DNA of 64,000 nucleotides from Pirellulales bacterium (GCA_022844125.1 JALHMI010000002.1:109461-173460); one strand, 5' to 3'. Shown: positions 1 to 18,901, counted from the stretch's first letter. The notes: generated by a model not told the origin, from the letters alone. Numbers and translations: made by a program.

Positions 1-601
1 AGGCTTTCACCTCGTCGACGATTTGCACCAAACGCTCGTATGTGCCGCGCGCAAAGCCCGCCATCTGGACCAGATCTTGCTTGTCGCTGTACTCGTCCTC
101 GATCAATTCGAGCAGAGGGAGCATGCAGAGTTGGTTGCCCATCTCGTGCGCAAGACGCGCAGCCGAGCGGCCCAGCATCGCGCAGCGATCGGAAGCCACA
201 AGCCGATCCTGCAACGCGATGTTCGACAGCGACATGTCGTAAGCCTCGATCGCGCGGAGCAGGATCGAGAAGACCTCGTCCTGCTCCCACGGCTTCTTGA
301 CGAAATAAAACACCTGTCCCTGATTGATTGCGCTAAGCATCGCTCGGGAATCGGCATAGCCCGTGAGCATCACGCGTTTGGTGTGTGGATACTTTCGGCG
401 CATGATCTCGAACAGCTCGGCGCCGCTCATCTTGGGCATCCGCTGATCGGCAATCACGACCGGAAAGACGTGCTGCTCGAGCAGGTCGAGTGCCGCCTGA
501 CCGCTAGAAGCAGTTACGATATTGAAGTAGTCTTCGAACGTGGCCTGGAATACGACCAGGTTCTCCATCTCGTCGTCGACGTAGAGGATATCTCGCTTCA
601 T
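1..601 (-). CDS. Response-regulator receiver + histidine kinase (REC-HisKA), 3' end outside window
   Basis: Not in the ORF track. Read from ATG at 601: [15 protein letters not shown]...VVIADQRMPKMSG...MLTGY...KKPW (REC), then H-box RLAHEMGNQL. The start overlaps the upstream kinase stop (ATGA). Confidence 0.9.
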   Translation of the reverse strand, partial: MKRDILYVDDEMENLVVFQATFEDYFNIVTASSGQAALDLLEQHVFPVVIADQRMPKMSGAELFEIMRRKYPHTKRVMLTGYADSRAMLSAINQGQVFYFVKKPWEQDEVFSILLRAIEAYDMSLSNIALQDRLVASDRCAMLGRSAARLAHEMGNQLCMLPLLELIEDEYSDKQDLVQMAGFARGTYERLVQIVDEVKA

Positions 602-3600
602 GGGATTGCTCGCTGAAACGCCAATTGTTCCTGAAAGTCGTCATCCGAGGCTGGCGCTTCAGCCACGCAAGGAAAACGAATGACGAATTCCGTGCCCCGC
701 TGAAGCTCGCTCTGACATTCAATCGATCCGCCGAGCTTGGTGATCAAGCCATAGCTCAGTGAGAGTCCTAACCCGGTGCCGACTCCTGGTTCCTTCGTCG
801 TGAAGAACGGATCGAAGATCTTCTGGCGAACGTCGGCCGGGATGCCGCAGCCGGAGTCGCGGATGCGGACGCTCACCCACTCGTCCTCCTGCCGCGTTGT
901 GATTGTGATCGCTCCGTCGTCGGTTATTGCCTGCTGAGCGTTGTTAAGAATATTCATGAACACCTGGTTTAACTGTCCGGCAGGGCCGAACACGCGGCCA
1001 ATCTCGCCATAGTCGCGAACGACTTCAATTCGGTCGCGCAGCGAACTGGAGAGAAGGTTCACGCACATATCGAGCGCCTCGTGCAGGTCGAACACCTGAA
1101 AATCTTCGTTTCCTGGATGCGAGAATGTCTTCAGATCGCTAATGATCCGGGCCGTTCGCGCTGCGCCGGCTTCGACGACGCTGGCGAGCGTCAGAATCTT
1201 CTGGAACGCGGCTTGCACTGCGTCCGGACCGCCCTCGGCAGTCGGCGCCGCCTCGACTAGCTTCTCCACCCGCTTGATGGTGGTGGCCAAGGGACGAATC
1301 CCGTTGTAGACGGCATTGATCGAGTTGTTGATCTCGTGCGCGAGGCCGGCAATCAACTGTCCAAGCGAACTCATCTTTTCAGCCTGGACAAGCTGGCTCT
1401 GCAGATCACGCAGTTCGTTGTAAGCTGTGCGCAGCTCGCGATTTCGCCGGTCGAGATCTTGATGCAGGCCGCGAAGCCGAAGCAGCGAGCGGACGCGCGC
1501 CTGGAGTTCGTTTTCTTCGAACGGCTTGATCAGGTAGTCGTCGGCACCACAGTTTAGACCCCCGATCTTCATCGACAGCTCGGCCTTGGCGGTGAGCATG
1601 ACGAAGGGAATGTGGGCCGTCGCCGAGTCCTCCTTGATCCGCCGACAGAATTCCTGCCCGTCTACGTGCGGCATCATCACGTCCGAGATGATCAGGTCCG
1701 GGGCGACTTGTCGGGCGACTTCGAGTCCTTCCTGACCGTCGCGAGCGAACACAACACGGTACTCGTCGCGCAACATTTCGCCGAGCAGTACGCGGATTTC
1801 GAGCGTGTCGTCAACGACCAGGATTGTGCGCGTAAACGGATTTCCGGTGTCGTGAATCCCGCTCTCGATCGCCGCCTCCGGCTCGATACTGAACTGATCG
1901 AGATCGGCAAAGGCTCGGCCCAGACGCTGCTCGCCAGAGTGGTTCACCGACAGTTGGCCTTGAGGTACCGAGCGTAGCGGCAAGTCAAAATAGAACCGCG
2001 AGCCACGGCCCAGTTCGCTCTTGAGGTGCACTTCGCCGCCGTGCAGTTCAACAAGGTCCTTTACCAGCGACAGCCCCAGGCCCGTTCCACTGAACTCGCG
2101 CGAGCTGGAACCGTCGACCTGCACAAAGCGTTCGAAGACCTTGTCGCGCTGCGTTTCGTCGATGCCAATACCGGTGTCGGTGATCGACACCCAGACACGA
2201 TCGTCCGTACGGTAGGTTTCGACGTGGATGCTGCCGCCGCGGGGCGTGAACTTGATGGCATTCGAAAGCAAGTTACTGACAATCGTATCGACTTTCTCCT
2301 CGTCTGCACCAAAGGGAGCAAGCTCCGGATCGCAGTCGACTGAAAGCACGATGCCGCGCTGTTGGACCAGCGGCGAAGCAGCCTTGGTAAGCGAGTCGAC
2401 CAGTTTGTTAAGGTCCGTGGCGGCCACATTGAGCTTCATCTGCCCGGCCTCGAGCTTGGAGAAGTCGAGCAACCGGTTGATCAAGTCGAGCAGGCGGTAT
2501 CCGTTGAGTCGAACCATCTCCAGCATGTGCTTGGCGGAGGGCGAAAGCTCTTCCGCGTTTCGCTGCAGTAGTCGATCGACAGGCGCCAGGATCATTGTCA
2601 GCGGCGTGCGAAGCTCGTGACTAACGTTGGAGAAGAATTCCGTCTTCAGACGATCGTGCTCGGTGAGCTTGTCGAGCGAACGTTGCAAGCTGCGTCGGCT
2701 GCGTGACAACTGTCGGGTGCGGCGGCGCACCTTACGCTCCAGGTTCGTGTTCAGTTCGCGAATTGTTCGGTCGTTTTCATCGAGTTGTTCGACCATCACA
2801 TTAAATTGACGAGCGAGGATGTCGAGCTCGTCGTTACCGGCAGGGTGCAGGCGCTCACAGAGTTGCCCCTGCTCGACGCGTTTCATCGCCTGCACTAGCT
2901 CGGCCACCCGGGAAGCGACGCTACGGGCGAGCACGACCGACAACATCAGGCCGATCGTCACCGCGGCGATGAAGATCATCATGATGTGCCACTGCATGTT
3001 TGCCAGCGTGGCAGCCTGATTCTGCGGATCGTTGACGATTTCGATGGCGCGCTGGTTGGCGAGCGCGCCAATCATCAGGGCAGTGCCGGCAATCGTGAGT
3101 CCGAAGCAGATGGTCATCCGCGACTGAAGCCGCGAAACGGGAAGCTGGGCATAAGGAATGGGCAAACCTTCGTCGAGGAGGTGCCGGATGATCGGACGCA
3201 TCCAGAACTCAATCGCGAAGAAGGACAGCATCAAGGACGTGGAAACGCCCAGGAATGTGCCGAGGCAGATGTTAATTAGCGTCGCCGAATCGACCTGATC
3301 CCACATATAGAGGATTGGGCAGAGCACGGCGTCGGTGACCAAAGGCACCAGCAGTGCTTCGTGCAGGTGGTGCTTGCCACAAAACTCGACAGCATCACGA
3401 CCCGCCTGCAGCGCACGCGGCAATTCGACGACCCGGCTATGCTGCAAATCGCCGAGCACGCGCCGCAAGCGGCGAGTTTCCCACAATCCCTGCAGGGTGG
3501 TCGCTACGACCGCGGCAATTACGACCACCACCGCCAAGAGCCGGAAGTGCGAAAGGACCTCCGGAGTGACGTGCAAAGTCAGGTCGATGTAATAGATCGT

Positions 3601-3735
3601 CAGCACGCCGCCGATCGAGCCGATCAGGCGGGTAACGATCATCATTACGAGGATGTAATGAGGTCCAAGTTTCTTGAGCAGCGTTGCCAGCATCGTCTGC
3701 CGTTCACTCGGACCCGGCGCAGCACGCCGGGACAC
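598..3735 (-). CDS. Membrane-bound hybrid histidine kinase (about 6 TM-HAMP-HisKA-HATPase-REC-HisKA-HATPase)
   Basis: Hydrophobic N-terminus; HAMP ([16 protein letters not shown]); H-boxes SHELRTPL and AHEINN; N/G boxes [21 protein letters not shown]; REC (ILVVDD, DVMMP, KPF). The start may be 3693. Confidence 0.95.
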
Positions 3736-3744
3736 ATTGATCTG

Positions 3745-6348
3745 CTATTTCAATCCACGACTCTTAAGTTCCATCCGCAGCAACTGGGCCAGTGCCCGAA
3801 GTAGAGCGGCCACGTCGATACTGCGAATTCCGGCCGCCAGGGAGGCGATCGATTGCCGATGGGCTTCCCACTTGAGCAGGAAATACTTTTCGTGTTCGCC
3901 GCGACGAACAGCCGCTTCGATCTTGTCCGGCATCGCGCTGGCCAGGTCGTTCAGGCTCAGATCCCCCTCGCGCAAAGCTCGGGCAAACACCCCGCTGGTA
4001 AAGTCGCGGTCGGCGATCTCTCGCTGCCAGGTACTGACCAGGTTGCCAATTCGCCCCATGTTTTGAGCGTGCCAAATCACTTCGCGCAATCGACCGATCT
4101 CCGCCCGATCGAAGTCGGGCGACCACATCAGGTCCATTGTGGCGAAGCTCATCATTTGCATATTGTGGGGTTGATACATGTCGTGCTCTTGAACGTTCAG
4201 CAGCGCCGGTTGCTTGTTGACCATCAGCGAGTAGGCAAACGTATTGAGGATCTGCTGATGATCGTAGTCGAGCAGTTCGGCGTATTCGGCGTAACCGGGC
4301 GCGCATTGGAGACGGCTTCGGAACGTATCCCATAGGTCGCACGTAAATTGAGCGTACTCTTGCTGTTGGCTCGAAAACGCGCTGAAATCGCGGTCGGCAC
4401 GGCCGGCGATGATACCGGTGAGCGCCGCGAGAAACGCGTCTCCGCCGGCATGATCGGCCACGTCGTCGAGCATGACTCCGTACATCACGGCCAGCAGCTT
4501 CGTATCGCAAAGGTCGCGACGCAGCGCAGGCGCGACGCACGACAGCGTCGTCAGATCGAGTCCGTGCAAGCACCAACGCCACAAATATACGTCACGCGAA
4601 CCCACTCGCCCGTATCGTTCGACCCAGTCGGCAATGAACGGACTGAATTGTGTGGCAAGGACTTGCGCCTGGACGTCGGGTGCGCCGGCCAGCTCCGTGA
4701 GCAGAAGCGCCGGCTCGGGATGTGATTGGCCCTGGCATGTCGCTATGGCCGGAACGATCCGCGCAATCTCAACCTCTTCAATCTCATTCGGCTGGGCCAG
4801 ATGATCGCCCAGCCAGCGGCTACGTCGGACAACCAAGTCCGCCAGCGCTTGATGCACGTCCTTGGCGTCAGTGGTTTCGACAGCGCCAGGCGATACGATC
4901 GTCATATTCGGCGCACTACCGCCGCGGATCAGTTGCTCGCAGACCCAGGCTGAGAAACCACCCGCTTCACAGTCGTCCAGAATCACCGTGTAAGCAGCCT
5001 CGGCAGCCGCGCTCGCGATACACTCGACGTCGAGCGGGTGCGCGAAGCGCGCGTTCACAACTGTGGCACGAATTTGCAGTTGAGCGAGATTCTCGGCCGC
5101 GATCGCTGCGGCAGCACTTGTCGAGCCCCACGCCACGATGGCAACATCTGCGCCTGCGCCAAGGCGTTCTGCTCGGCCGGATTCAACTTCCTCGCCCGAA
5201 GGCCAACTGACCTCTGGCAGGTCCCTCTCGGCCAACCAGACAATCGCCGGAGTGTTCTGCCTGGTACACCACGCAAGCATTTGGCTCAACTCGATGCCGT
5301 CTTTGGGCGCGAGCAGCCTGACCCTCGGCAGCTCACGAAACGCCGACAGTTGCGAGGAATGTGCCAGGGCGTGAGTCTTATTGCCGGCCTCGATGACGAG
5401 TGTGATTCCTAATTCACCGTCGGCGAATAGGCGGCGAATCGCAGGCAGTTGGTCAAACGCCTCGTCGAGCGGCAACAGTAGGCACGGGTGCCGCCCCGCC
5501 GCCGCCAGTGACTGACAACGTGTGAGTAGAACGAACGTATCATCAATCTCACTCTCGGATGAGAAGTGCACGACGCTGGAATCGGCGGCCTCGAGTTCCT
5601 GCAACGATTCAATCGCACACTCGTGGTAGGTTTGCCCGAGCAAGGACGCGCCCGAGTTGGTCGAGTCGGCGGATGAGAAGTGCGGAGGTGGCGGAGCGGA
5701 AGCAGTATCGAAGTACAATACACTGGAATCGCCGCTGTGCTTGACGTCGGCCAGCAGCCCGATCAGATCCTCATCCGTGTCGAGAGAGACCGGCTCCCGA
5801 TATCGAAGGTGAAGCCGCGAGGCCACGCGTTCTGCCAGCTGACGTGGGCCGACCGCTGGCAAACCAGCTTCCCTGACACCGCATATCACCAATAGCAGGC
5901 GTGCATCCTGCTCGAGGGCGGTGCGCATTTCGGGAGAGCCGTTCTCGCTGGCGAGTTCCTGTGCGGTTTGCACGAGCACTAGCCATGGTGGTCCGGCGTC
6001 AACAGCATGCATTGTCGAATCGGACTGCACAGCGCCTGAATGCGCAAAGCCGTGGCCCGAATCGATGCGGAGCTGCGGCTCACTGTTCGTGCCTTGCAGG
6101 CGCCACACCACACGGTCGCTAGCGGCACCGAACGTGCGTTGCAGCGCCGCTGCAAGCCGCCCGACTGCCCGGTTGCCGGTCTCGGCGGCAAGTTCGAAGC
6201 GCGAATCGCTTGAACGAAGCAGCTTCGATGGATGAGAATCGGGTAACGGAACCATGCGCCAGGAATTCGGATCGACCACGTTCGCCATGACGTGCTCAGC
6301 GGCATTGAGATGGGGTAAAACACGCGTGGCGCACTGGTCTCCCCTCAT
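3745..6348 (-). CDS. Fusion of a degenerate DXS/transketolase-like region and a C-terminal class I terpene synthase-like domain
   Basis: The N-terminal ~520 aa track DXS segments (RELPRVRLLAPKDGIELSQML; GADVAIVAWGS; VVNARFAHPLD). The C-terminal ~300 aa carry LDDVAD (4453-4470) and RIGNLVSTWQRE (NSE/DTE-like, 4018-4044). Alternative start 6288. Confidence 0.8.
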   Translation of the reverse strand: MRGDQCATRVLPHLNAAEHVMANVVDPNSWRMVPLPDSHPSKLLRSSDSRFELAAETGNRAVGRLAAALQRTFGAASDRVVWRLQGTNSEPQLRIDSGHGFAHSGAVQSDSTMHAVDAGPPWLVLVQTAQELASENGSPEMRTALEQDARLLLVICGVREAGLPAVGPRQLAERVASRLHLRYREPVSLDTDEDLIGLLADVKHSGDSSVLYFDTASAPPPPHFSSADSTNSGASLLGQTYHECAIESLQELEAADSSVVHFSSESEIDDTFVLLTRCQSLAAAGRHPCLLLPLDEAFDQLPAIRRLFADGELGITLVIEAGNKTHALAHSSQLSAFRELPRVRLLAPKDGIELSQMLAWCTRQNTPAIVWLAERDLPEVSWPSGEEVESGRAERLGAGADVAIVAWGSTSAAAAIAAENLAQLQIRATVVNARFAHPLDVECIASAAAEAAYTVILDDCEAGGFSAWVCEQLIRGGSAPNMTIVSPGAVETTDAKDVHQALADLVVRRSRWLGDHLAQPNEIEEVEIARIVPAIATCQGQSHPEPALLLTELAGAPDVQAQVLATQFSPFIADWVERYGRVGSRDVYLWRWCLHGLDLTTLSCVAPALRRDLCDTKLLAVMYGVMLDDVADHAGGDAFLAALTGIIAGRADRDFSAFSSQQQEYAQFTCDLWDTFRSRLQCAPGYAEYAELLDYDHQQILNTFAYSLMVNKQPALLNVQEHDMYQPHNMQMMSFATMDLMWSPDFDRAEIGRLREVIWHAQNMGRIGNLVSTWQREIADRDFTSGVFARALREGDLSLNDLASAMPDKIEAAVRRGEHEKYFLLKWEAHRQSIASLAAGIRSIDVAALLRALAQLLRMELKSRGLK

Positions 6349-6691: not shown

Positions 6692-7381
6692 ATGGCGCTC
6701 ATGCAGACCACGTGTGATCGATCGTACCCGCTGGTGCATCCAGAATTGGTCGACGCGATGGTGTTTCCAGAACCAACGTCGAGCGAAGCGGAGCCGTTTG
6801 CCGTCGAATTGCGCGAGATCTCGCCGGCGAGCGCGAAGCTGCTGATGGCCGGACCACCGCAACTTCCGAGTCGTTGCCGATTACGGCTCAACAGTTCAAA
6901 GCTGGCGCGTCCGCTGGAGCTAAACGCCGAAATTGGTTGGGCAAGGCCGAATCTGGCCGGCGACTGGCTCGTGGAGTGCGAGTTTCTTGCACGAATGAGC
7001 GAATCGCGATTCGACGCTGTGCTCGCGAGCGGTCTCTTGGAGCGCCGTTCGGCCGTGCGATATCAGACGCGCATTCCAGTACATGTCGAATGGACGCTCG
7101 GAGAGAATCGGCTAAGCGGCCTGGTTCGCGATCTGTCGGAGGGCGGTTTGTGCCTGATGACCAGCATGTCTCCGGCGGGTCGCGTGGTTTACGTGATCGC
7201 CACAGCGCCTAACGGAGAAGCAGCGTTAAAGCTCAAGGTTCGCTGGTCGCTGGGCGTCGGAGAAAAACATCTGGTCGGCTGTCAGTTCATTCGTGGCGAA
7301 GACTTCTATCTGCTCCGCAACTTACAGCCCACGGCGCAGCCGGCGTATAGTGAGTACTCGCGCGCGACGCGGCCAAGCTAG
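6692..7381 (+). CDS. Tandem PilZ-domain protein
   Basis: The second domain has RRSAVR (RxxxR) and DLSEGG (DxSxxG). The first domain is a degenerate copy (EISPAS, EIGWAR, VECEF). Confidence 0.8.
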   Translation: MALMQTTCDRSYPLVHPELVDAMVFPEPTSSEAEPFAVELREISPASAKLLMAGPPQLPSRCRLRLNSSKLARPLELNAEIGWARPNLAGDWLVECEFLARMSESRFDAVLASGLLERRSAVRYQTRIPVHVEWTLGENRLSGLVRDLSEGGLCLMTSMSPAGRVVYVIATAPNGEAALKLKVRWSLGVGEKHLVGCQFIRGEDFYLLRNLQPTAQPAYSEYSRATRPS

Positions 7382-9020: not shown

Positions 9021-11363
9021 TCATCCGGTTGGGAGTGTTCCGCGCATCTGCATCGGTTCGAGCACAATCCACACGCCGAGCACAAACAGCACGAAGATGA
9101 GCATGGCCCAGGGGGTCAGCGCCCGCAGCGGTCGACCGACCCAGGCGTCTTGTGAGGCGATTCGATAGCCCACTGCCAGAGAGGCGAGCAACCCAAGATC
9201 AAGCGCGATGAGCTCAAACTTGATGATCCAATCGGCGACACCTAGACAGCAGGCGTGCTGCCAGTCAGGATCCCCCAGTGCCGCGATGCCGACCAGATCG
9301 CCAATCGCACGCTGCGTGACCGGCAGGATCGTGGCGTAGCTCGTGAGGAAATGAAATCCATGATGGGCCAGCCACATCGCAAAGCCGAGCGGAACGAACG
9401 CATATGCGAAACGGATCACAAGTGCCCCGCAGGACCGCCGTGCCCTGCCCCAACGGCGCGAGATCGCAGCCGCTGAAGCAAGAATCGCTAGCGGACCGAC
9501 GACGAGCGTAAACGAGTAGTAGAACGCGACGACCGCGAACTGAGACATACCCCACCACTCGGCCAGCCGATCTTGGTATTCGACAACGGGTGCGATCATT
9601 CCCGCTGCATTGGCAAATGCGCCAAAGACGAGCAGCCAGATCAAGGCTGCAACATCCGCCCTGTGGCCGAGGCGGCCGATGCCCGAGCGAAACACATCGA
9701 GATGGATCAGCGTGTTACCCGGCGTAACAGCTAGGACGCCAATGTTCTCATGGGGACAAGCTTGCACGCAATCGAGGCAGAACGTGCAGTCAAGATTTCC
9801 AACCTTGCGTGGCTGAAACAGATGCGTCCCGCAGCCCGAGGCTGTTTCTCTGCCGCGAATGCAGTCTTTGGTCCGGCAGGTGGTGCAAGCCTGGGGTTCA
9901 CGAACGCGGACTTCCAGCGGCGAGACGAGCGACTGTACGAAGTTGAATTGACCAATCGGGCAGACATACTTACAAAATGCCGCGTCACGAAACAGCCCAT
10001 CGATCACGAATGCGGCTACGAAGTAAGCCACGGCGATCCAGGCGGTGAGCCAGGGGCTATTCCACAGGGCGAACGCCTCGTAGCTCCACAGAAACGCCGC
10101 GACGAGTGCGACAGCCAGCCACTTGCTGCGCAGAGTTCGCGGCCATGCTCGGCCTCGCGGCAGCCAGTATCCGGCAAATCGCCGCGGTAGCGTGAATGGG
10201 CAAGCCATGCAGAAGAAGTTTCCCCCGACCAGCAGCCCAAACATCACCAGACCGCGCCAATGAATCCAGGGGGCAACGCCAGCCAGATTTGCCGGTCCAA
10301 CTTCGGGGCCGGTAAAGCCGTCCAGCAACACGACAACTGCCGCGATCAGCATGACGGTTTGCAGCACCGGCCGCCCAAAGCGCCAGCGGAGAAATCGCCC
10401 GACAAGCGGAGCTTTCAACAGGTCCCACTGCGGCCTGGGCTTGGCTACCGCGGCAACATGACAATTTGCCGAAGTCAGATGAACGATCGGCAGGGATGAC
10501 AGCGGACGCACACGCTTGGGGTGCCTTGTCCGTCGCTCCGTAGCGGATGAACGCCCGCTGAGCATCCGAACTCCGATCACGAACACCGGCAGCAGAAAAG
10601 CCACCGAGCCGGGCACCCACATCAGCACGCCCGCAAGCTGCTGGTCGGCGAGCGGCGACCAGGAGACGATACTTGGAAGTTCCGTGTAGTGCCGATAGAT
10701 CGGCTCCGACGCGAATGCCAACCAGGCCGAGAGCACTGTGTTCTGTACGTCGGCAAACACGAGGTATGGCAGAACCAGCCACCGCGACCACGGCGGCCGG
10801 CTTGGGTAAGGTTGAATAACGGGGAACCAGAATAGCAGCGACGCAGCAAGAAACGTGGCGTGCTCAGCGATGTGCCAGGTCGGATCGCGAAGCGCGAGTT
10901 CGTAGCTCAGTGGGGCGTGCCAGATCCAGACGGCCGCAGCAAAGATCGGCCAGGCAATAAGCGGATGCGTCAGTAGGGCGAATGCGTCACGCGCGAGCGG
11001 CGCTCGGAGGATTGGAAGCGCCACCGTAGAACGGACCGCACGCGGCAGGCCGCGTAGTACCGGCAGCAGCGGATCACCGACCCACAGGAGCGCGGGCGCC
11101 ACCATCATGAGCAGCATGTGCTGCACCATGTGGACGCTGAGCAGCAGATCGGCAAACACCTCGATTGGCGAAGCCAGGGCCAGAAAGACTGCCGCTATTC
11201 CACCCAGGAAAGCTGCGAGCCTAAGGCCACTCCAGCGAAGCGGATCATGCCGCCGCAACTTGAACCAGCCATGCAAGTAGACGGCTGCCGCGATGGTGAG
11301 CGAAACGCACAGCCAGGGGCTGATGGGCCACGAACGCAGAAAGGCGTCGAACGTGGGATTCAT
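9021..11363 (-). CDS. CtaG-like caa3 oxidase assembly factor fused to a FixG/NapH-like 4Fe-4S membrane domain
   Basis: CtaG motifs HMVQHMLL, WHAP, HIAEH, DQQLAGVLMW, followed by CMACP, CKYVCP, CTTCRTKDC, CTFCLDCVQACP. The start at 11363 (MNPTF) overlaps the cytochrome b stop. Confidence 0.85.
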   Translation of the reverse strand: MNPTFDAFLRSWPISPWLCVSLTIAAAVYLHGWFKLRRHDPLRWSGLRLAAFLGGIAAVFLALASPIEVFADLLLSVHMVQHMLLMMVAPALLWVGDPLLPVLRGLPRAVRSTVALPILRAPLARDAFALLTHPLIAWPIFAAAVWIWHAPLSYELALRDPTWHIAEHATFLAASLLFWFPVIQPYPSRPPWSRWLVLPYLVFADVQNTVLSAWLAFASEPIYRHYTELPSIVSWSPLADQQLAGVLMWVPGSVAFLLPVFVIGVRMLSGRSSATERRTRHPKRVRPLSSLPIVHLTSANCHVAAVAKPRPQWDLLKAPLVGRFLRWRFGRPVLQTVMLIAAVVVLLDGFTGPEVGPANLAGVAPWIHWRGLVMFGLLVGGNFFCMACPFTLPRRFAGYWLPRGRAWPRTLRSKWLAVALVAAFLWSYEAFALWNSPWLTAWIAVAYFVAAFVIDGLFRDAAFCKYVCPIGQFNFVQSLVSPLEVRVREPQACTTCRTKDCIRGRETASGCGTHLFQPRKVGNLDCTFCLDCVQACPHENIGVLAVTPGNTLIHLDVFRSGIGRLGHRADVAALIWLLVFGAFANAAGMIAPVVEYQDRLAEWWGMSQFAVVAFYYSFTLVVGPLAILASAAAISRRWGRARRSCGALVIRFAYAFVPLGFAMWLAHHGFHFLTSYATILPVTQRAIGDLVGIAALGDPDWQHACCLGVADWIIKFELIALDLGLLASLAVGYRIASQDAWVGRPLRALTPWAMLIFVLFVLGVWIVLEPMQMRGTLPTG

Positions 11364-12889
11364 GACGCATCGGGCGGAGGCAATTGCTTCGCGTAAGTGG
11401 GCTCGGCAGCCTGCTGAGCACCAAGCGACGGACCAGGAGTTGCCCAACCCGCGGCCGGCTGCCCCTCGGGTCGCAAGCTAACGAGAAAATCTACGAGCAT
11501 CGACAACTCAGCCGGCGAAATCTGCTTGCCGTAGGCAGGCATCAAACCGCCGCCGGGAGTGCCGTTTGAGACCTGCATGATGAGTTGATCGCGTGTGAGC
11601 CGAGTTCCCACACTAGTGAGGTCGGGACCTCGTCGGCCGCCGACCCCATCCAAGGCGTGGCAATTGCGACAATTCTTGTATTGAAAAACCGATCCACCTA
11701 CGAGCTGGGGGACGGTGGATCGCTTGACGATTTCGACCGGCACCGGATCAGCCGTCCAAGCTTCCATCCTGGGGGACCAGGGGGCGGTAAAGCCGAGATA
11801 GGTGAGCACACCGAGCGTGGTGTAAATCAAGATCACCGAAAGCACGGCGACGGGTCGCCGGCTGGGAGCACGTTCGCCCCGATTGCTGATGAAAGGCACG
11901 GCGAACATCACGCCGATCACGAGCAGCGGAAACACCAGGATGATGAACGTTTCCGCTTCGCGCGGACTCAGTGACAAGAGCGCGAACAACCACAGAAACG
12001 GCCACTCGGGGCGTGGATTCGCCCCGCCCAGCGTCGGGTCGGGCGGATCGGTCGGACCCTTTGGTCCCAGCACCGCCGCGATCACCACAACCACAATTAC
12101 TGCAAGCGCCGAAACAAGTGCGTCGCGCCAAAAGGCGTCGCCAAAGAACGGCACGCCGCGCTTGAGCGACTCGGCATAGTCGCGGTCGTATGTTGCCCGA
12201 TCGACAATTTGCCCTGGCACCGGCGGAGCGCTGACGCCGCAACGGAGCACCAGCCACAAGTGGATCGCCAGAAAGAACAGCAGCGCCCCGGGAATTACGA
12301 AAACATGCAGGGCAAAGAAACGCGAGAGTGCGGCAGCGCCAATCGTTTCGGCGCCAAGCAGCACATGCACCACATCTGGCCCAATGATCGGCACGCGGCC
12401 CGCCATCGAGCCCGCCACCGCGAGTCCCCAGTACGCATCGGGATCCCAGCGCAGAATCTGCCCACTGAAAAACATACCGAGCACGCACAGCAGCAACACC
12501 ACGCCGACGCACCAAGTCAGCTCGCGCGGATACTTATGCCCACCTTGCAGGAACACCTGCGTCATGTGCACCAGCACCATCACGACCATCCCTGAGCCAG
12601 CGTAGTAATGTAATGCTCGCAAAAACCAGCCGAGCGGATGCTCGTAGTCAAGATACAGCAGGCTTTCGTAGGCCTGATCGGCGCTGGGGACGTAGACCAA
12701 CGCCAGTCCAACGCCGCTCAGAATCTGGAGCAGCAAAAACGTGAGCGATGCGCTGCCGAATACGTACCACCAACCCATCGGACTTTCCAGCTCGCGCGGA
12801 ATTGGGTGTAAAACCGTGTGCGCAAGCAGATCTCGCACGCCGAGTCGGCGGTCGATCCAGGTTCCAATTTGCCTGAGGCGCGCATTCAT
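11360..12889 (-). CDS. qcrB: Cytochrome b of a Rieske/cyt b complex with C-terminal cytochrome c domain
   Basis: WYVFGS; heme ligands RALHYY..VHM and FALHVF..IHL; Qo loop PEWP; C-terminal CRNCH...MPAY. Start set at MNARL (12889). Confidence 0.93.
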   Translation of the reverse strand: MNARLRQIGTWIDRRLGVRDLLAHTVLHPIPRELESPMGWWYVFGSASLTFLLLQILSGVGLALVYVPSADQAYESLLYLDYEHPLGWFLRALHYYAGSGMVVMVLVHMTQVFLQGGHKYPRELTWCVGVVLLLCVLGMFFSGQILRWDPDAYWGLAVAGSMAGRVPIIGPDVVHVLLGAETIGAAALSRFFALHVFVIPGALLFFLAIHLWLVLRCGVSAPPVPGQIVDRATYDRDYAESLKRGVPFFGDAFWRDALVSALAVIVVVVIAAVLGPKGPTDPPDPTLGGANPRPEWPFLWLFALLSLSPREAETFIILVFPLLVIGVMFAVPFISNRGERAPSRRPVAVLSVILIYTTLGVLTYLGFTAPWSPRMEAWTADPVPVEIVKRSTVPQLVGGSVFQYKNCRNCHALDGVGGRRGPDLTSVGTRLTRDQLIMQVSNGTPGGGLMPAYGKQISPAELSMLVDFLVSLRPEGQPAAGWATPGPSLGAQQAAEPTYAKQLPPPDAS

Positions 12890-12906
12890 TGTCGTCAATG
12901 GATTGA

Positions 12907-13461
12907 TCAGGTCGGCTGGCGAAGCGTGTCTTGTAAGGTCGGGTAGTGAGGAGCCTGGATCTCGAGTTCGCCCGAGCGAATTCGCCACATGACGTGGAAC
13001 ATACCGCGCGGCGGTGGACCTGAAGCATGTGACCCGTCGGCGTAGTACACACCGCCGTGGCAGGGGCAAAGAAAGAGTTCAGACTGCGGAAACCACGAGA
13101 CCGGACAGCCAAGATGGGCGCAATTGACGCTCAGCACCAGGAACTGCGGATCGCCTTTTTCAACCACCCCCAGCTGTCGCACATAAACGCCGGTTTGCGA
13201 GGTAATCCCGTCCCACGGCAGGCGGAGCGGATTGTCGAACGTCACGAGGCGCGTTTCGTTTAAGGCGAAGCCCGTGGTCGGACCAAGATTGACCCAGGGG
13301 ACTTTCACCCGCCGCTGGCCGACTAGAAACCGCACTCCCGGCACGGCGACGAGCGCGCTCGCAACCAGCCCAGTCACGACCGCGATCCAACCCAGAAAGC
13401 TTCGTCTGGCGGGGTTATCGTTCGGCGGAGCTTGGGATACGTGGTTCATCGCGGTGGTCAT
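12907..13461 (-). CDS. qcrA: Rieske [2Fe-2S] subunit
   Basis: Twin-arginine RRSFL + TM helix; CAHLGC and CPCHGGVY. Start 13461 overlaps the upstream stop. Confidence 0.93.
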   Translation of the reverse strand: MTTAMNHVSQAPPNDNPARRSFLGWIAVVTGLVASALVAVPGVRFLVGQRRVKVPWVNLGPTTGFALNETRLVTFDNPLRLPWDGITSQTGVYVRQLGVVEKGDPQFLVLSVNCAHLGCPVSWFPQSELFLCPCHGGVYYADGSHASGPPPRGMFHVMWRIRSGELEIQAPHYPTLQDTLRQPT

Positions 13462-14225
13462 TCGCCGGGTCCCATGTTCGACGCAACTTGCTGCGGCCGG
13501 CCGCGCCAATGGGCCAAGAGTGCAACCAGGTCGTCAATCTCCTCGGATGTGAGCGGTTTGAAGTCGCTGTCGCGGCCATCGGTCTCGGCAAAATTCGGCA
13601 TGCCGAGGTCCGGTCGGCCTGTGATGATGATCCGCCGCAATGCCTGATTGCTGAACAAGGACAGCAGTGCGGGATCATTGACGCGGCCGGGAGCTGTATC
13701 TTCGTCGCCGCTCCCCTGCCCCGAGTCGCCGTGACAGGCAGCGCAAGCGCTGGCAAAGAGTTTCTCGCCCCGAGCAATCTGTTCGGCCGAAGGCTGTGTG
13801 GAGAGCTCACCTGTGTACGGCGGAGCATCGCCCCCAGCCAAGGTCGGCTTGAAATGAGTTTTCAGACCTTCAGCAAGGATCTGGATCTGCTCAGCGGTCA
13901 GCGTTCCCGACAGTCGCCTATCAAATGCGGGCATCGGCGTCCCCCGCCGGCCGCGGGTGATCACATCGAGCAGCACCTCATCAGGCACAATCGCCAGGAA
14001 CAACGGATCGTTAAGCGGCGGAGCCGGGCCAAGCTTGCCATCAGCACCGTGGCAGCCGCTGCAACTGCGGGCAAACAGTACCTGAAAATCCGTTTGCTCG
14101 CTGGGCAACTTGGGACGGCTTGCGGGATTGGGCTTTCCCGGCATTTGGTCGAGGCAGCCGCCGGTCGTCAACAGGAAAAGCAGGCCGGCAACTCGCCATG
14201 ATTCTAATAGCCTGGCGGAGGTCAT
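13458..14225 (-). CDS. Diheme cytochrome c, probable lipoprotein
   Basis: Lipobox-like TGGC; CSGCH...MPAF and CAACH...MPNF. Confidence 0.9.
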   Translation of the reverse strand: MTSARLLESWRVAGLLFLLTTGGCLDQMPGKPNPASRPKLPSEQTDFQVLFARSCSGCHGADGKLGPAPPLNDPLFLAIVPDEVLLDVITRGRRGTPMPAFDRRLSGTLTAEQIQILAEGLKTHFKPTLAGGDAPPYTGELSTQPSAEQIARGEKLFASACAACHGDSGQGSGDEDTAPGRVNDPALLSLFSNQALRRIIITGRPDLGMPNFAETDGRDSDFKPLTSEEIDDLVALLAHWRGRPQQVASNMGPGE

Positions 14226-15493
14226 GATCTCACTCCTCGGCCAGCGGGAGCGATGGCAATTTCCTCAGAACGCACGACCACTATGGCCGCGGCGATGCCG
14301 AACACGAACTGCGAAACCACGAACCAAGGCCAATCGACTCGCTGCTGCAGAGCCGGATTGACGATGCCCATCATGCTGTAGCTTGCCGCCGTCCACAGCA
14401 GCGGCATCAACATCGCGCCCCAGGCAAACGGGCCGGGAATTCGTCCGAGCCGCGGAAGCAACAGTCCGGCCAGGGCCCCGAACGACAATGAAACGACGGC
14501 ATGCAAGGCGCATGCGGCAGCGAACCAACGGGCGTCGAACTGCTCGAGTTCCGCGATCGAGTAACTTTGCTCGTGCGGCAGAATCATCACGGCCAGGAGA
14601 TTGACCGGATACCAGATCCCATGTCCCGAGGCAAAGCCCCAGAGCATGGCGGGGGCGGCCATCAGGAGGCCGCCCATCGCCCCACCGAACAATCCGGCCA
14701 GAATGCTGCGCCCGGGGCCGGCGGCCATGACTACGGTAGCGGTCGTGATCCCAAACACGAACTGCGAGAGCACAAAATATGGCCAATCGATCAGACTCTG
14801 GACTTCAGGATCGACGATGCTGGTCGCGATGAAACTGGCCGCAGTCCAAGTAAGCGGCGCAAAAAGCGCCGCCCAAGCGAGCGCCCGCGGAATGTGCGGA
14901 AGCGTGGGCAGCAGCACTCCGTAGATGGTGCCGAACATTAATGACACGGCAACGTGAATCATGATACCTGCGGTAAAAAGCACCGGCTGAAAGGCGCGCA
15001 GTTCGGCGTCGCTAAGCTGTTCGACGCCGGGGAGCACGATGCCGGCGAGGAGATTGATCGGCAGCCAGATGCCTTCGCCGCTGAAGAGCCCGTAGAGAAG
15101 TGCCGGAATTGGCATCACCAAGCCGCCAACAATCCCGCCCTTGAGTCCTGCCGAGATGGGCTGCACTTTTTCCGGCAGTCGAAAGCGGTAGCCGGGCATG
15201 CCAGGACGGAGTTGCCCAACGCGCCCAGGCGCGGCAACCACGGGCTTGGGCCGGACATCTTCCGCGGCGAGAGGTTCAATCACGTGCCCTCGGCCGGGCA
15301 GCAGTTGTGCGATCCAATTGGCGAGCCCCGCGATGAAGATCACGAACCCCGCCAGGACGAATGCGAGATGCGTGGCCCAGCCGAAGGCGAGCACGGTGAT
15401 TCCCAACGCGAGCACGAGCGGCGCGGCGGTAGGAGCGGGAAGTTCCACGCCCTCTGCATGCGCATCGTGTTTGCTGGAGAGTTGCTCGGCCAT
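14222..15493 (-). CDS. Polytopic membrane protein with an internal ~145-aa tandem duplication
   Basis: Repeats GIWLPINLLA/GIWYPVNLLA, WTAASF/WTAASY, DWPYFVLSQFVFG/DWPWFVVSQFVFG; lies in the middle of the oxidase operon. Confidence 0.85.
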   Translation of the reverse strand: MAEQLSSKHDAHAEGVELPAPTAAPLVLALGITVLAFGWATHLAFVLAGFVIFIAGLANWIAQLLPGRGHVIEPLAAEDVRPKPVVAAPGRVGQLRPGMPGYRFRLPEKVQPISAGLKGGIVGGLVMPIPALLYGLFSGEGIWLPINLLAGIVLPGVEQLSDAELRAFQPVLFTAGIMIHVAVSLMFGTIYGVLLPTLPHIPRALAWAALFAPLTWTAASFIATSIVDPEVQSLIDWPYFVLSQFVFGITTATVVMAAGPGRSILAGLFGGAMGGLLMAAPAMLWGFASGHGIWYPVNLLAVMILPHEQSYSIAELEQFDARWFAAACALHAVVSLSFGALAGLLLPRLGRIPGPFAWGAMLMPLLWTAASYSMMGIVNPALQQRVDWPWFVVSQFVFGIAAAIVVVRSEEIAIAPAGRGVRS

Positions 15494-15516
15494 CGTTGGC
15501 TATACCAAATTGTTCA

Positions 15517-16146
15517 TTATGCCAGGTAAATCACTGTGAAAACCACGATCCACACCACGTCGACAAAATGCCAGTACCAGGAGACCATGCGAGCGCCAGT
15601 CGACTCTGCCTGTCCAAGGGCCTTGGCCAACGACAACCCGAGGATGATGAGCATCGCCACCACGCCGCCCGAAACGTGCAGAGCATGAAAACCGACGAGC
15701 GTATAGAACGTCGAACCGAACAGATTGCGGCTAATTGTCAAACCGTCGTGAACGACCAGGCCGTACCATTCGTAGGCCGTGCCGGCCAGAAACGCGATTC
15801 CCAGCGTGATGGTGACAGCCCACCAAAGTTTAAAGATCGCGTTCCGGCCGTGCCCCAAGGCATGGGTCGCCAGGTGCACGGTGAAACTGCTCGCCAATAG
15901 AAGCGACGTGGTGGCGACTGCGAGCGGCAGCGAAAGCACCTCGGATGTCGGCCCGGAGAGATTGTCGTTGTGCAACGTCACATAAGCCACGACCAACGTG
16001 CTGAAGAATGCAACTTCAGAGAACAGAAAGCTGAGCATGCCCCATTCGTGCCCGTTCAACGTATGCTCAGGCGCAATGTCGGGGGGAACCGGCAAGGTCG
16101 TCGCCGGTCCGCCCGAAGTCTGGTAGTAGTCGTTCTGCTGATTCAC
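15517..16146 (-). CDS. ctaE: Cytochrome c oxidase subunit III (short, 5-TM type)
   Basis: GMLSFLFSEVAFF, FYTLVGFHALHV, WYWHFVDVVW. GTG start at 16146 inferred. Confidence 0.93.
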   Translation of the reverse strand: MNQQNDYYQTSGGPATTLPVPPDIAPEHTLNGHEWGMLSFLFSEVAFFSTLVVAYVTLHNDNLSGPTSEVLSLPLAVATTSLLLASSFTVHLATHALGHGRNAIFKLWWAVTITLGIAFLAGTAYEWYGLVVHDGLTISRNLFGSTFYTLVGFHALHVSGGVVAMLIILGLSLAKALGQAESTGARMVSWYWHFVDVVWIVVFTVIYLA

Positions 16147-16166
16147 GATTTGCTGTGGTTCTCGCG

Positions 16167-17831: not shown

Positions 17832-17857
17832 GGACTGACGAGTAAAAGGGAACAGCG

Positions 17858-18901
17858 TTACTTGAGGCTCAGCAAATACTGGACGATCAACTCTTCCTTC
17901 TCGGCCGACAATCCGAAGGCCGGCATCAGGCAGCCGGGCTTGATGTCGTGAGGGTTGTGGATCCAACGACGCAAGTTTGTTTCATCGAGCGGAATGATCC
18001 CCGAAGCCAACGTCTGGCGGCTCATCAAGTGCGTCAAATCGGGTGCGTAGTTGCCCCTGGCCGTTGTGCCGCGAATACGATGGCAGTTTACGCACGACTC
18101 CGAGAGAAATGCTTCTCGGCCTGCGGCTTGCTGCGGATCATCGACGGCGGGCAAGGCCTGTCCCGCGAGCCACTTGTCAAAGTCTTCCGGTGAATCCACC
18201 ACCACGCGAAGCAGCATGTGGGCGTGCTGCGTGCCGCAAAACTCGGCACATTGACCCAAAAAGAGCCCCGTGACGTCGGTTTTCAGCCAGAGTTGGTTTG
18301 TGCGGCCGGGAATCAGATCCACTTTGCCTTCGAGCCGGGGTATCCAGAAGCTATGCACTACGTCAGCCGATTCGAGCAGCAGTCGCGTGGGACGCGAGCG
18401 TTCGGGGCTGCTTGCAGGGATATGGAGTTCGTTGGCTGTAATGAACGCGAGCTTGCGCCCGTCGTACGATTGGTAGCGATATTCCCACCACCACTGGCGT
18501 CCGACAACGGTGACGGTAAGCGGCTCGATCACGTTGCGACTAGTGGCCGGCGCGGCGTTCACTTCCCACAACGTTCGTGCGGAGACGAGCACCAGAAAGA
18601 AAACGATCAGGGCCGGCGCGACCGTCCAGGCAATCTCGATGGGGTTGCTGCCGTAAACCTGTGGTGGTTCGGGTGGGGGCGTGTCACTGGAGCCGCCGCG
18701 GTGACGAAACCGCGCGATCGTGTAGAACAGGATTCCTTCAACAACCAGAAAAATGAGCGCGGCAACGGCTAGCACCAACAGCGCTAGCCGCACAATGGCC
18801 GCGCCTCCAGGCGAGGCGGGCTCGAAAATTGAAAGCTCGTGCCAGGGCTCTTCAGCCGCGGCCGCGAGCAGCGCATTTCCTGAGGCAAACACTCCTGACA
18901 T
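17858..18901 (-). CDS. ctaC: Cytochrome c oxidase subunit II with fused cytochrome c (caa3 type)
   Basis: QWWWEY, DVVHSFW, CuA motif CAEFCGTQHAHM, C-terminal CVNCH...MPAF. Confidence 0.96.
   Translation of the reverse strand: MSGVFASGNALLAAAAEEPWHELSIFEPASPGGAAIVRLALLVLAVAALIFLVVEGILFYTIARFRHRGGSSDTPPPEPPQVYGSNPIEIAWTVAPALIVFFLVLVSARTLWEVNAAPATSRNVIEPLTVTVVGRQWWWEYRYQSYDGRKLAFITANELHIPASSPERSRPTRLLLESADVVHSFWIPRLEGKVDLIPGRTNQLWLKTDVTGLFLGQCAEFCGTQHAHMLLRVVVDSPEDFDKWLAGQALPAVDDPQQAAGREAFLSESCVNCHRIRGTTARGNYAPDLTHLMSRQTLASGIIPLDETNLRRWIHNPHDIKPGCLMPAFGLSAEKEELIVQYLLSLK

Follow-up and report, generated by a model that had tools for sequence, protein, structure and literature searches.

Described terpene synthases and the fused protein of the window

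Among the closest described systems are single-alpha-domain terpene synthases of archaea, found by EnzymeExplorer (bioRxiv 10.1101/2024.01.29.577750). One of these, the archaeal beta-bisabolol synthase A0A5E4I9B1, is described in this 2026 preprint as experimentally active and without Pfam matches. Its helix-H motif reads NTLNTWPRE, and residue R24 is located 43 residues before D67 of the DDxxD motif (bioRxiv 10.1101/2024.01.29.577750). In the sodorifen cluster of Serratia plymuthica, genes for a terpene cyclase, a methyltransferase, a DXP synthase and an IPP isomerase are found together (PMC5429845). The canonical bacterial class I cyclases of Pfam family PF19086, among which 10-epi-cubebol synthase (7zrn), epi-isozizaene synthase and pentalenene synthase, form a further group for comparison.

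The protein studied here is encoded on a stretch of 64,000 nucleotides of a Pirellulales bacterium (GCA_022844125.1 JALHMI010000002.1:109461-173460), hereafter the window. Its longest frame comprises 867 aa. The ATG at 6288 is probably the true start, giving a protein of 847 aa, because homologues begin with MANVVDPNSWRM and the 96% identical P0002 has a length of 847 aa. The following features were assigned to this gene:

3745..6348, minus strand: whole open reading frame of 867 aa (longest frame), a terpene-synthase-like domain joined to a degenerate DXS scaffold at its N-terminal side
4771..6288, minus strand: DXS-derived N-terminal part, aa 21-526 (Foldseek, alignment, TIGR00204)
4885..5178, minus strand: Pfam match to Transketolase_C (DXS domain III), aa 391-488, E 1.6e-15
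3748..4713, minus strand: predicted class I terpene-synthase alpha-fold domain, aa ~546-867 (AlphaFold2 model, Foldseek, VIA-align)
4453..4467, minus strand: DDVAD, the first metal-binding motif (DDxxD), aa 628-632, at the C-terminal end of a long helix
4018..4044, minus strand: N769-L-V-S-T773-W-Q-R-E777, a variant NSE/DTE second metal-binding motif (sequence, conservation, model)
3748..3762, minus strand: C-terminal SRGLK; in 18 closer relatives G does not vary and S-R hardly does

The original prediction had placed a terpene-synthase-like domain at 3745..4670. Such a domain is present, but as the C-terminal third of a longer protein of 867 aa (probably 847 aa) and not as a separate protein. 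Its structured part starts near aa 546 (window ~4713), slightly beyond 4670. Judged from the predicted structure and the sequence motifs, this domain is probably a very divergent but active class I, ionisation-dependent, terpene synthase.

Fold and metal-binding motifs of the C-terminal domain

Modelled with AlphaFold2 (pLDDT 93.5, pTM 0.91), the last 341 aa are entirely helical, in line with the all-helical domain proposed from the sequence. Foldseek searches against the PDB gave 7zrn as the best match (E 3.7e-5), and the top matches were class I terpene cyclases. With VIA-align, class I terpene synthases made up 50/50 among the matches listed, with Z-scores of 20.4-21.6, 253-304 residues aligned, an rmsd of 3.0-4.2 and 9-13% identity. 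The domain thus shares its alpha-helical fold with the canonical cyclases (Z ~21), and the idea of a terpene synthase, for which the isoprenoid-synthase alpha fold had been the decisive point, survives this comparison of the AlphaFold2 model by Foldseek and VIA-align.

Sequence comparisons told a different story from the structural alignments with these cyclases. The domain had no Pfam match at E<=10, neither to PF19086 nor to PF03936, and no terpene synthase match among PDB sequences, either by sequence or by profile; a profile built from 68 relatives likewise retrieved zero terpene synthases from the PDB sequences. Weak matches to PF19086 (Terpene_syn_C_2) were found in 5 of the 74 relatives scanned, and P0198 was the only one above the gathering score (34.6 vs 23.7 bits). 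The archaeal beta-bisabolol synthase resembles the window domain in lacking a standard Pfam match, in consisting of a single alpha domain and in carrying DDxxD on helix D.

Both metal-binding motifs were recovered as proposed. LDDVAD is found exactly at 4453-4470 (aa 627-632, minus strand), and the second motif lies within RIGNLVSTWQRE (aa 766-777, window 4018-4053, minus strand). From the first Asp of DDVAD to the Asn of the second motif there are 141 residues, in agreement with the ~140 aa estimated before, and N769, T773 and E777 satisfy the N-x3-(S/T)-x3-E spacing, with R776 directly preceding E777. The window protein indeed has Leu in place of the usual Asp after Asn, which sets it apart from the canonical cyclases. 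Of the 150 matches to the extended motif, 121 have this Leu, a variant form of NSE/DTE. DDxx[DE] and Nxxx[ST]xxxE at a spacing of 110-170 aa were both present in 211/229 retrieved relatives; the remaining 18 include some fragments. On the strength of the sequences, the occurrence of both motifs is more than chance.

Conservation was further analysed in a 68-sequence alignment, the rows of which are 30-52% identical to the window domain (domain numbering is protein residue minus 526). D102, D103 and D106 of the first motif and N243, T247 and E251 of the second were each conserved in at least 90% of the rows, as were W248 and R250. R229 (protein R755) and D170 were invariant, and conserved Trp, Tyr and Met residues were numerous. 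In the AlphaFold2 model DDxxD closes helix 81-106 at its C-terminal end, and the N/T/E triad does so in helix 222-253. Within the model, both positions match those usual for helices D and H, and in canonical cyclases DDxxD and the NSE-type triad are likewise found at the ends of the corresponding helices.

FPP and GGPP synthases were also among the Foldseek matches, at similar E-values (6b02 at rank 14, E 5.4e-4), which raises the alternative of another enzyme of the isoprenoid-synthase fold, either a chain-elongating prenyltransferase or a head-to-head synthase of the squalene/phytoene type. Such an activity would explain the loci without a separate prenyltransferase (see below). However, the domain has a single DDxxD, its second motif is of the terpene-synthase type and not a second DDxxD, and the Z-ranked list holds terpene synthases throughout the matches listed. 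Pfam families PF00348 and PF00494 gave no matches, and PF19086 was the sole family matched by relatives. We regard this alternative as highly improbable. The fold, the motif conservation and the PF19086 links of the relatives support an uncharacterised family of the terpene cyclase type, as had been suggested.

Bacterial cyclases carry a C-terminal RY pair (WxxxxxRY), and bacterial terpene synthases typically have a diphosphate-sensor Arg ~46 residues upstream of the NSE motif. The reported lack of WxxxxxRY held up: zero RY pairs follow the second motif, the sole RY being that of WVERYG close to the N-terminus of the domain, and the protein ends in SRGLK, as stated. The SRG that replaces RY of the canonical enzymes is a candidate stand-in for this diphosphate-binding pair. 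An Arg 46 residues before N243 is absent, the position being taken by D197, which is invariant in 18 closer relatives; the invariant Arg closest to N243 is R229, which precedes it by 14 residues. The missing RY pair and upstream Arg, and the lack of a Pfam or PDB sequence match for the window domain, count against the terpene synthase that we favour.

The resemblance to the archaeal enzyme extends to these regions. N-x3-T-W-x-R-E is common to the archaeal synthase (NTLNTWPRE) and the window domain (NLVSTWQRE), as judged by comparison of the motifs themselves. Furthermore, R59 of the window domain is located 43 aa ahead of D102, the same distance as between R24 and D67 of the archaeal enzyme. 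Differences were found as well: at one helical turn ahead of DDxxD the archaeal enzyme carries an unusual Asp, the window domain Gly, and the archaeal enzymes are stand-alone, whereas the window domain is joined to a dead DXS and encoded in an operon with kinase, IspH and FadL genes. A motif RIGNW.STW.RE had been attributed to haloarchaea. It fits the consensus MARIGNWxxTWERE of distant stand-alone relatives, but the haloarchaeal source was not confirmed; a profile of these distant forms gave 26 matches, the only names among which were Candidatus Pacebacteria and 'bacterium'. As a lead only, Atlas pointed to an archaeal-rich cluster with Methanobacteriota as the commonest phylum (score 0.95).

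The DXS-derived part and the fusions of relatives

DXS is the first enzyme of isoprenoid synthesis. The model of aa 21-526 (pLDDT 81.4) retains the colinear three-domain DXS fold, all top Foldseek matches listed were DXS (E 2.4e-20 to 4.1e-16), and domain III is still recognisable by sequence. Identity to the DXS of the same genome was 29% across 139 aa (BLASTP), and the TIGR00204 score of 56.6 bits is below the cut-off of 465.95. When the window protein was aligned with two intact fused forms and the true DXS encoded in its genome, the GDG...NDN thiamine-diphosphate motif, GIAEQH and DGPTHHG were seen to be all replaced or deleted; their places are taken in the window protein by QTA, CGV, a deletion and HALAHS. 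The N-terminal part is a dead DXS and at most serves as a scaffold or dimerisation module. A true dxs is found elsewhere in the genome, adjoining a prenyl-diphosphate synthase gene.

In most of the family, decay has left the DXS part as a scaffold. An intact DXS is fused to the terpene-synthase-like domain in P0051, P0097 and L028, and a stand-alone dxs is also present in 3/5 genomes with an intact fused DXS. Other partners of the domain are RibB (P0037, P0048), RibB together with IspH (P0085) and a piece of HMG-CoA reductase (P0206). Signalling modules were found among the 74 relatives scanned as well: PilZ in 9, one of them REC+PilZ, and cNMP-binding domains in 5; these modules lie N-terminal to the terpene-synthase-like domain. 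N-terminal fusions to DXS, RibB, PilZ, cNMP-binding or REC domains, together with the kinase neighbour described below, distinguish this family from the canonical class I cyclases. In the literature covered by our search, which mostly lay outside subscription journals, terpene-synthase fusions to DXS, RibB, IspH, HMG-CoA reductase, PilZ, cNMP-binding or REC domains were undescribed, and nothing was found on this terpene-synthase family or on a kinase/IspH/FadL operon. The family is rare and patchy, occurring in 5/401 sampled Planctomycetota genomes, that of the window included.

An E. coli ribB suppressor bypasses dxs (PMC10663253). Fused and neighbouring RibB paralogs were considered as natural suppressors of this kind, but the idea found no support at the residue concerned, the site of the G108S substitution: Gly is kept there in 14/14 full-length RibBs, cluster-encoded or fused.

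The fusions bear on a second alternative, in which the terpene-synthase fold is a non-catalytic sensor that binds IPP, DMAPP, HMBPP or FPP without turnover and reports the precursor level. It would restrain its fusion partner (DXS, HMG-CoA reductase or IspH) allosterically and serve the adjacent histidine kinase as a ligand-binding accessory subunit, making the operon a feedback regulator of isoprenoid flux. DXS, the HMG-CoA reductase piece, IspH and RibB are indeed flux-controlling or terminal enzymes, drawn from both isoprenoid pathways, and the reduction of DXS to a scaffold in most members is in keeping with a sensor. The conserved metal and diphosphate ligands suit a binder as well as an enzyme; being equally needed by a non-catalytic binder, their conservation is no proof of turnover. 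However, the pocket retains many conserved aromatics, like catalytic terpene synthases, and the archaeal protein that shares the helix-H motif is reported to be catalytically active. N-terminal PilZ, cNMP-binding and REC modules are the usual layout of a regulated enzymatic output domain, and an intact fused DXS as second copy beside the housekeeping dxs, as in 3/5 genomes, fits dedicated supply better than global feedback. Overall, a sensor without turnover appears unlikely to us.

The operon and a possible terpenoid signal

CqsA-CqsS and LuxM-LuxN are gene pairs of an autoinducer synthase and a membrane receptor-kinase. A synthase gene beside a hybrid histidine kinase with a sensor of bundled TM helices is also found in the window, a likeness of organisation rather than family, compared by logic only; the fold and chemistry of the synthases are unrelated, and homology of the kinase sensors is not claimed. 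The neighbouring genes are:

598..3735, minus strand: hybrid histidine kinase with six TM-like segments, HAMP, HisKA, HATPase, REC and a second HATPase
2926..3735, minus strand: membrane-embedded sensor region of this kinase, aa 1-270, six hydrophobic segments with short loops
1..601, minus strand: REC + kinase-core protein, 388 aa in the genome, extending past the left edge of the window
6692..7381, plus strand: PilZ-domain protein, divergently transcribed

The kinase gene begins 9 nt past the stop of the synthase gene, and the start of the REC-kinase gene overlaps the kinase stop (ATGA). In the window's genome the gene order continues from the synthase, the six-TM hybrid histidine kinase and the REC-kinase to genes for a second IspH and for an outer-membrane channel of the FadL/TodX type; this channel gene is part of the operon itself, as is one of the two IspH copies of the genome. 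Pfam searches with the kinase sensor region gave nothing at E<=5 beyond noise, and Atlas returned MASE10 (0.93, low recognition), a lead only. A DNA-binding regulator was not seen in the operon of this genome. The PilZ-protein family of the window is also found upstream in 10 related loci, and PilZ and GGDEF genes neighbour the synthase in related loci. Prediction of a complex between kinase sensor aa 1-330 and the synthase domain scored 0.00 in two runs, which speaks neither way.

Among the 54 related loci with 7 kb downstream, a kinase with a homologous N-terminal sensor is the next gene after the synthase in 51, IspH is present in 40 and a FadL/TodX channel in 37. A homologue of the kinase N-terminal sensor starts <=600 nt downstream of the synthase in 64/76 loci. 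This adjacency is the same for stand-alone and DXS-fused synthases, persists down to ~40% synthase identity, whether the DXS part was lost or gained, and is kept in genomes with two paralogous synthase-kinase pairs (L015/L027 and L017/L036). Tailoring enzymes are rare; an FAD oxidoreductase was found in at least 8 loci, directly after the synthase gene in some. A prenyltransferase was found in 0/80 loci by tblastn with the genome's two polyprenyl synthases, a search that a very divergent one could escape. The lack of a prenyltransferase in 80 loci and the few tailoring enzymes are unusual for a terpenoid gene cluster and count against the favoured reading of terpenoid production.

For the non-catalytic sensor, the near-obligate kinase adjacency (51/54 loci) and the scarcity of prenyltransferase and tailoring genes are further arguments, but the FadL/TodX channel (37/54 loci) and the FAD oxidoreductase that directly follows the synthase in some loci are left unexplained by it. 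Alternatively, the protein may be an ordinary terpene synthase of specialised metabolism, active but yielding a membrane lipid, a pigment precursor or a defensive volatile, with the kinases regulating the operon in response to another cue, such as the state of the envelope or redox state. This possibility shares the fold and motif evidence with the favoured explanation, and a rare and patchy family is typical of accessory metabolism. Precursor-supply genes also occur in ordinary terpene clusters, for instance dxs and idi in the sodorifen cluster. An extra dxs with a terpene synthase is common to that cluster and the present loci, which also have a second ispH. The two differ in that dxs is here covalently fused and mostly decayed, and in that a kinase and a FadL-type channel take the place of the methyltransferase. 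Against an unrelated cue stand a kinase adjacency that is kept at ~40% identity, across gain and loss of DXS and in paralogous pairs, a kinase sensor that is almost wholly membrane-embedded, which suits a hydrophobic ligand, and an operon that has no visible DNA-binding regulator. We consider a specialised metabolite of this kind improbable, although the kinase may sense something unrelated to the synthase product.

The explanation that we favour, and to which we give an even chance, is that the terpene synthase is active and that the partner kinase responds to its hydrophobic product; the data suggest a conserved planctomycete operon in which a terpene is made and sensed as a signal. In the proposed mechanism, three Mg2+ ions held by DDxxD (D628, D629, D632) and N769/T773/E777 would bind the diphosphate of a prenyl diphosphate, with R776, the invariant R755 and the C-terminal R864 as basic residues aiding this hold. 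Loss of the diphosphate would leave a carbocation in a pocket rich in Trp, Met and Tyr, and its quenching would yield a small, hydrophobic product, either a terpene or a terpene alcohol. C5 units would be supplied by IspH and, in basal relatives, also by the active fused DXS. The product would cross the outer membrane via the FadL-type channel and be sensed by the membrane-embedded domain of the kinase, and production would be gated by c-di-GMP, cNMP and phosphorylation inputs through the PilZ, cNMP-binding and REC fusions of relatives. Two points count against this reading: the FadL family is known chiefly for uptake rather than for export, and no DNA-binding regulator was seen in the operon.

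The substrate may be FPP, as judged by analogy with the archaeal synthase. A C5 substrate is also possible: with no prenyltransferase in the locus and IspH fused or adjacent, the enzyme could, in a bolder version, convert a C5 diphosphate (DMAPP or HMBPP) to a hemiterpene such as isoprene or a methylbutenol. Less probable in our view is that the operon represents a terpene-based circuit for cell-cell or self-sensing in Planctomycetes and some other uncultured bacteria, in which the synthase makes a small, hydrophobic terpenoid autoinducer that passes the FadL-type channel and reaches its cognate six-helix histidine kinase. The synthase of such a circuit would be fed by its own DXS and IspH, with gating by c-di-GMP, cNMP or phosphorylation in some lineages.

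Terpene synthases as divergent as this one escape Pfam and the genome-mining rules built on it, and terpenoid capacity is therefore under-counted in Planctomycetes, in candidate phyla and probably in archaea. Ranging from intact to dead, the fused DXS forms show cleanly how an enzyme decays to a scaffold in nature, and the fusions link a terpene synthase to both precursor supply and second-messenger control. If the C5 version is true, the enzyme would be a long-sought bacterial isoprene-type synthase. To our knowledge, no bacterial terpenoid signal with a dedicated receptor has been described; this family, in which the synthase is near-obligately paired with a FadL-type channel and a sensor kinase embedded in the membrane, is a directly testable candidate for such a system.

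The putative synthase ORF and its DXS-derived part

In the genome of the window (G000), the genes for the putative synthase, a hybrid kinase, a REC-kinase, IspH and a FadL/TodX protein all lie on one strand.

Features of the putative synthase gene and its operon
3745-6348, - strand: synthase ORF, 867 aa as longest frame, heading the operon
4453-4470, - strand: LDDVAD (aa 627-632), the DDxxD motif
4018-4053, - strand: RIGNLVSTWQRE (aa 766-777), the second motif
598-3735, - strand: hybrid kinase, 9 nt after the synthase
running past the window's left edge, - strand: REC-kinase of 388 aa, in ATGA overlap with the kinase
G000:C2 about 107913-109151 (L085:10453-11691), - strand: IspH, next in the operon
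G000:C2 about 106370-107743, - strand: FadL/TodX protein, after IspH
6692-7381, + strand: PilZ protein, divergent from the synthase

The original prediction had given these coordinates for LDDVAD, with the second motif about 140 aa later in a protein ending in SRGLK, and this is correct. The helical domain that it described is also present, but forms only the final third of a longer ORF and not the entire protein. The true start of this ORF is probably the ATG at 6288, since homologs start with MANVVDPNSWRM and P0002, a relative 96% identical to the window protein, is 847 aa long.

Pfam searches of the N-terminal part returned Transketolase_C (aa 391-488, E 1.6e-15), a fragment of Transket_pyr below threshold and nothing else, and the DXS model TIGR00204 reached 56.6 bits where its cut-off is 465.95. 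A structure model of aa 21-526 (pLDDT 81.4) had DXS structures as top Foldseek matches, with E from 2.4e-20. The motifs GDG, NDN, GIAEQH and DGPTHHG are present in the genome's own DXS and in the intact fused DXS of the relatives P0051 and P0097; alignment with these three showed QTA, CGV, a deletion and HALAHS at the corresponding places of the window protein. The N-terminal part thus is a DXS-fold scaffold without cofactor and catalytic motifs. A true dxs (683 bits) is located elsewhere in the genome, adjoining a prenyl-diphosphate synthase gene.

Fold and conserved residues of the C-terminal domain

No family was found for the C-terminal domain in Pfam at E<=10 or in NCBIfam, where all 13 matches fell within the N-terminal part (aa 311-481). 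Phmmer against the PDB matched no chain with this domain, and a 68-sequence profile yielded no PDB chain except two chance-level rows (E 0.14 and 0.44). An AlphaFold2 model built on the 68-relative alignment is all-helical (mean pLDDT 93.5, pTM 0.91). Foldseek against the PDB gave 28 matches at E<=0.001 with bacterial, fungal and plant class I terpene cyclases on top, among which 10-epi-cubebol synthase (7zrn, E 3.7e-5) and tolypothrichol synthase (9kgb, TM 0.63), and a few prenyl-diphosphate synthases further down. With VIA-align, all 50 of the 50 entries listed were class I terpene synthases (Z 20.4-21.6, 253-304 residues, rmsd 3.0-4.2). In domain numbering (protein residue minus 526), the DDxxD motif is carried by the C-terminal end of model helix 81-106 and the N/T/E residues by that of helix 222-253, which are the canonical sites on helices D and H. 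Judged by the modelled structure, the domain clearly has the class I terpene synthase fold; it is a very divergent new member of a known enzyme kind. Activity as a prenyltransferase or head-to-head synthase is unlikely, because there is a single DDxxD only, the second motif is of the NSE type and the ranking of structural matches argues against it.

An exhaustive search of cluster representatives found 655 relatives at E<=0.001 (288 at E<=1e-30), including stand-alone proteins of about 310-357 aa. Across 68 relatives with 30-52% identity to the window domain, conservation reaches at least 90% at each of D102, D103, D106, N243, T247, W248, R250 and E251; D170 and R229 do not vary at all, and numerous aromatic and Met residues are conserved. 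Both motifs, 141 residues apart in the window protein, occur at the correct spacing in 211 of 229 retrieved relatives, and Leu follows the motif Asn in 121 of 150 motif matches. Weak matches to Pfam PF19086 (Terpene_syn_C_2) were obtained with 5 of 74 relatives, that of P0198 alone being above the gathering score.

Canonical bacterial cyclases have an Arg 46 residues ahead of the second motif; unlike these, the window domain has neither this Arg nor the RY pair. The C-terminal S-R-G is conserved in the synthase domain and may substitute for the missing RY. According to a preprint, three archaeal terpene synthases without Pfam matches are experimentally active, and the archaeal beta-bisabolol synthase carries 67-DDXXD, an Arg 24 paired with D68 and 221-NTLNTWPRE (10.1101/2024.01.29.577750). 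The window domain resembles this enzyme as quoted there in the Arg-to-Asp spacing of 43 (R59 to D102) and in N-x3-T-W-x-R-E (NLVSTWQRE). Drawn from motifs as quoted, the family link to the archaeal enzymes is a strong lead, not proven.

Fusion partners and phylogeny

The same C-terminal domain is joined to intact DXS in P0051, P0097 and at locus L028, to degenerate DXS in most of the 111 homology-search matches, and to RibB/DHBP synthase in P0037 and P0048; P0085 has RibB N-terminal and IspH C-terminal to it. Among 74 further relatives scanned, Transketolase_C remnants were found in 12, PilZ in 9 (one with REC too), cNMP-binding domains in 5, and AAA_25 and a C-terminal piece of HMG-CoA reductase in one each. 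PilZ, cNMP-binding and REC modules ahead of a domain are the normal layout for regulated enzymatic output, and their position here supports a regulated enzyme.

The HMG-CoA reductase piece occurs in P0206 (491 aa), where the C-terminal 113 residues of the reductase (Pfam profile positions 259-365 of 368) stand directly ahead of the synthase domain; the sequence is probably truncated by the end of its contig. It would represent a fusion with the rate-limiting enzyme of the mevalonate pathway.

A FastTree phylogeny of 188 non-redundant domains (midpoint root, local supports only), with architecture labels from a phmmer screen in which truncated ORFs may be mislabelled, showed a planctomycete super-clade with support 98. 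PilZ, cNMP and distant stand-alone forms fall outside it, intact-DXS fusions lie near its base, and degenerate-DXS forms make up a large derived clade in which a stand-alone/RibB subclade is nested. This branching order would fit a putative scenario in which DXS was fused once, with decay and losses later. Genomes with an intact fused DXS also have a stand-alone housekeeping dxs in three of five cases, which favours a dedicated supply, as in the sodorifen cluster.

Gene neighbourhood and proposed function

A pattern scan with one genome per species yielded 80 loci, of which almost all come from MAGs of Planctomycetota. A homolog of the kinase N-terminal sensor starts within 600 nt downstream on the same strand in 64 of the 76 loci whose downstream flank extends 600 nt or more, and 1.5-2.3 kb downstream, beyond inserted genes, in five more. 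Among the 54 loci whose flank there covers 7 kb or more, the kinase is next in 51, an IspH homolog is present in 40, a FadL/TodX-type outer-membrane channel in 37 and all three together in 32; several IspH and FadL misses end at the edge of the flank taken. Homologs of the genome's two polyprenyl synthases were found in none of the 80 loci. Genes that recur nearby encode a divergently transcribed RibB (at 11 loci), a PilZ protein, also divergent (at 10), GGDEF proteins and a FAD-dependent oxidoreductase, the last as an ORF family of six loci with related ORFs directly after the synthase gene in L028 and L062, where they are inserted before the kinase (in L062 together with IspH).

FAD-dependent oxidoreductases (FAD_binding_3/DAO)
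L028:8906-10186, + strand: between synthase and kinase; intact-DXS clade
L062:8903-10216, + strand: between synthase and kinase; intact-DXS clade
L015:4778-6076, + strand: upstream of the synthase ORF, overlapping its longest frame

This oxidoreductase is a candidate tailoring enzyme, either hydroxylase/epoxidase or reductase. Several genomes have two synthase-kinase pairs (e.g. L015/L027, L017/L036). In the window's genome the synthase family is single-copy and a second IspH is encoded elsewhere. In the kinase sensor there, six TM-like segments joined by short loops precede a HAMP domain; the sensor matched no Pfam family.

Several further observations concern these loci. The RibB paralog, a riboflavin-pathway enzyme divergently adjacent in the 11 loci (L049:5589-6272(-), L038, L071, L074 and others) and fused in P0037, P0048 and P0085, has Gly at the site matching E. 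coli G108 in 14 of 14 full-length cluster or fused copies, most of which have TG(I/V)SP versus TGITA and TGVSA in the two housekeeping RibBs compared. The longest ORF of the operon IspH has about 100 residues before its LytB domain (Pfam match 103-379 of 412 aa), which are either a genuine extension or the result of a start called too far upstream. In P0112 (488 aa), from another genome, the end of the synthase domain continues into the kinase N-terminal membrane region, apparently through a frameshift or misassembly; the protein is independent evidence of this gene order. The family is rare, being present in 5 of 401 sampled Planctomycetota genomes, the window's own counted; G008 and G176, sampled genomes of one genus (9.3-9.5 Mb), each have four or more copies, two of them in tandem about 0.2-0.4 kb apart, which amounts to a local expansion where carriers are otherwise rare. 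Elsewhere in the window, 9021-18901 (-) holds a respiratory block (an 808-aa Caa3_CtaG assembly-factor-domain protein, cytochrome b fused to a c-type domain, Rieske protein, dihaem cytochrome c, COX3, COX1 and COX2-cytochrome c), which looks ordinary, as do the nearby NorB-like oxidase (23208-25439) and protoglobin (21217-21837). A 2429-aa surface protein with Calx-beta, Big_13, Big_6 and SdrD_B repeats (29784-37073, -), with BBP7 beta-barrel porin genes on either side (28135-29682, 38422-40068), is typical planctomycete content.

Direct observations are the fold, the conservation of the residues that would hold metal and diphosphate, the physical joining of the domain to modules for isoprenoid supply or second messengers, and an operon retained across related loci. 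The domain is predicted to ionise a prenyl diphosphate supplied by IspH, plus active DXS where this survives, and to release a small hydrophobic terpenoid, which the FadL-type channel would carry across the outer membrane and the membrane-embedded kinase would sense. A non-catalytic prenyl-diphosphate sensor regulating the fused enzymes and the kinase would agree with the kinds of protein fused to the domain and with the decay of DXS, but leaves the FadL channel and the oxidoreductase unexplained, and the archaeal enzyme sharing the motif is reported to be active; this role is considered improbable. Equally doubtful is an ordinary specialised terpene synthase beside a kinase that senses something else. 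For a terpene synthase whose product is sensed by its partner kinase, the absence of a prenyltransferase from the loci and the IspH fusion and adjacency leave room for a C5 substrate. The archaeal analogue uses FPP. The Bacillus isoprene-forming enzyme is stated as not yet identified (PMC4864966), and volatile isoprenoid output in plants is reported to be tuned by IspH/HDR adaptation (PMC7067565).

Family members are labelled 'transketolase C-terminal domain' or 'hypothetical' in the sources, and no account of the fusion or the operon was found in the literature searched, which lay largely outside subscription journals. New here are the series of fusions and the module made up of synthase, kinase, IspH and FadL.
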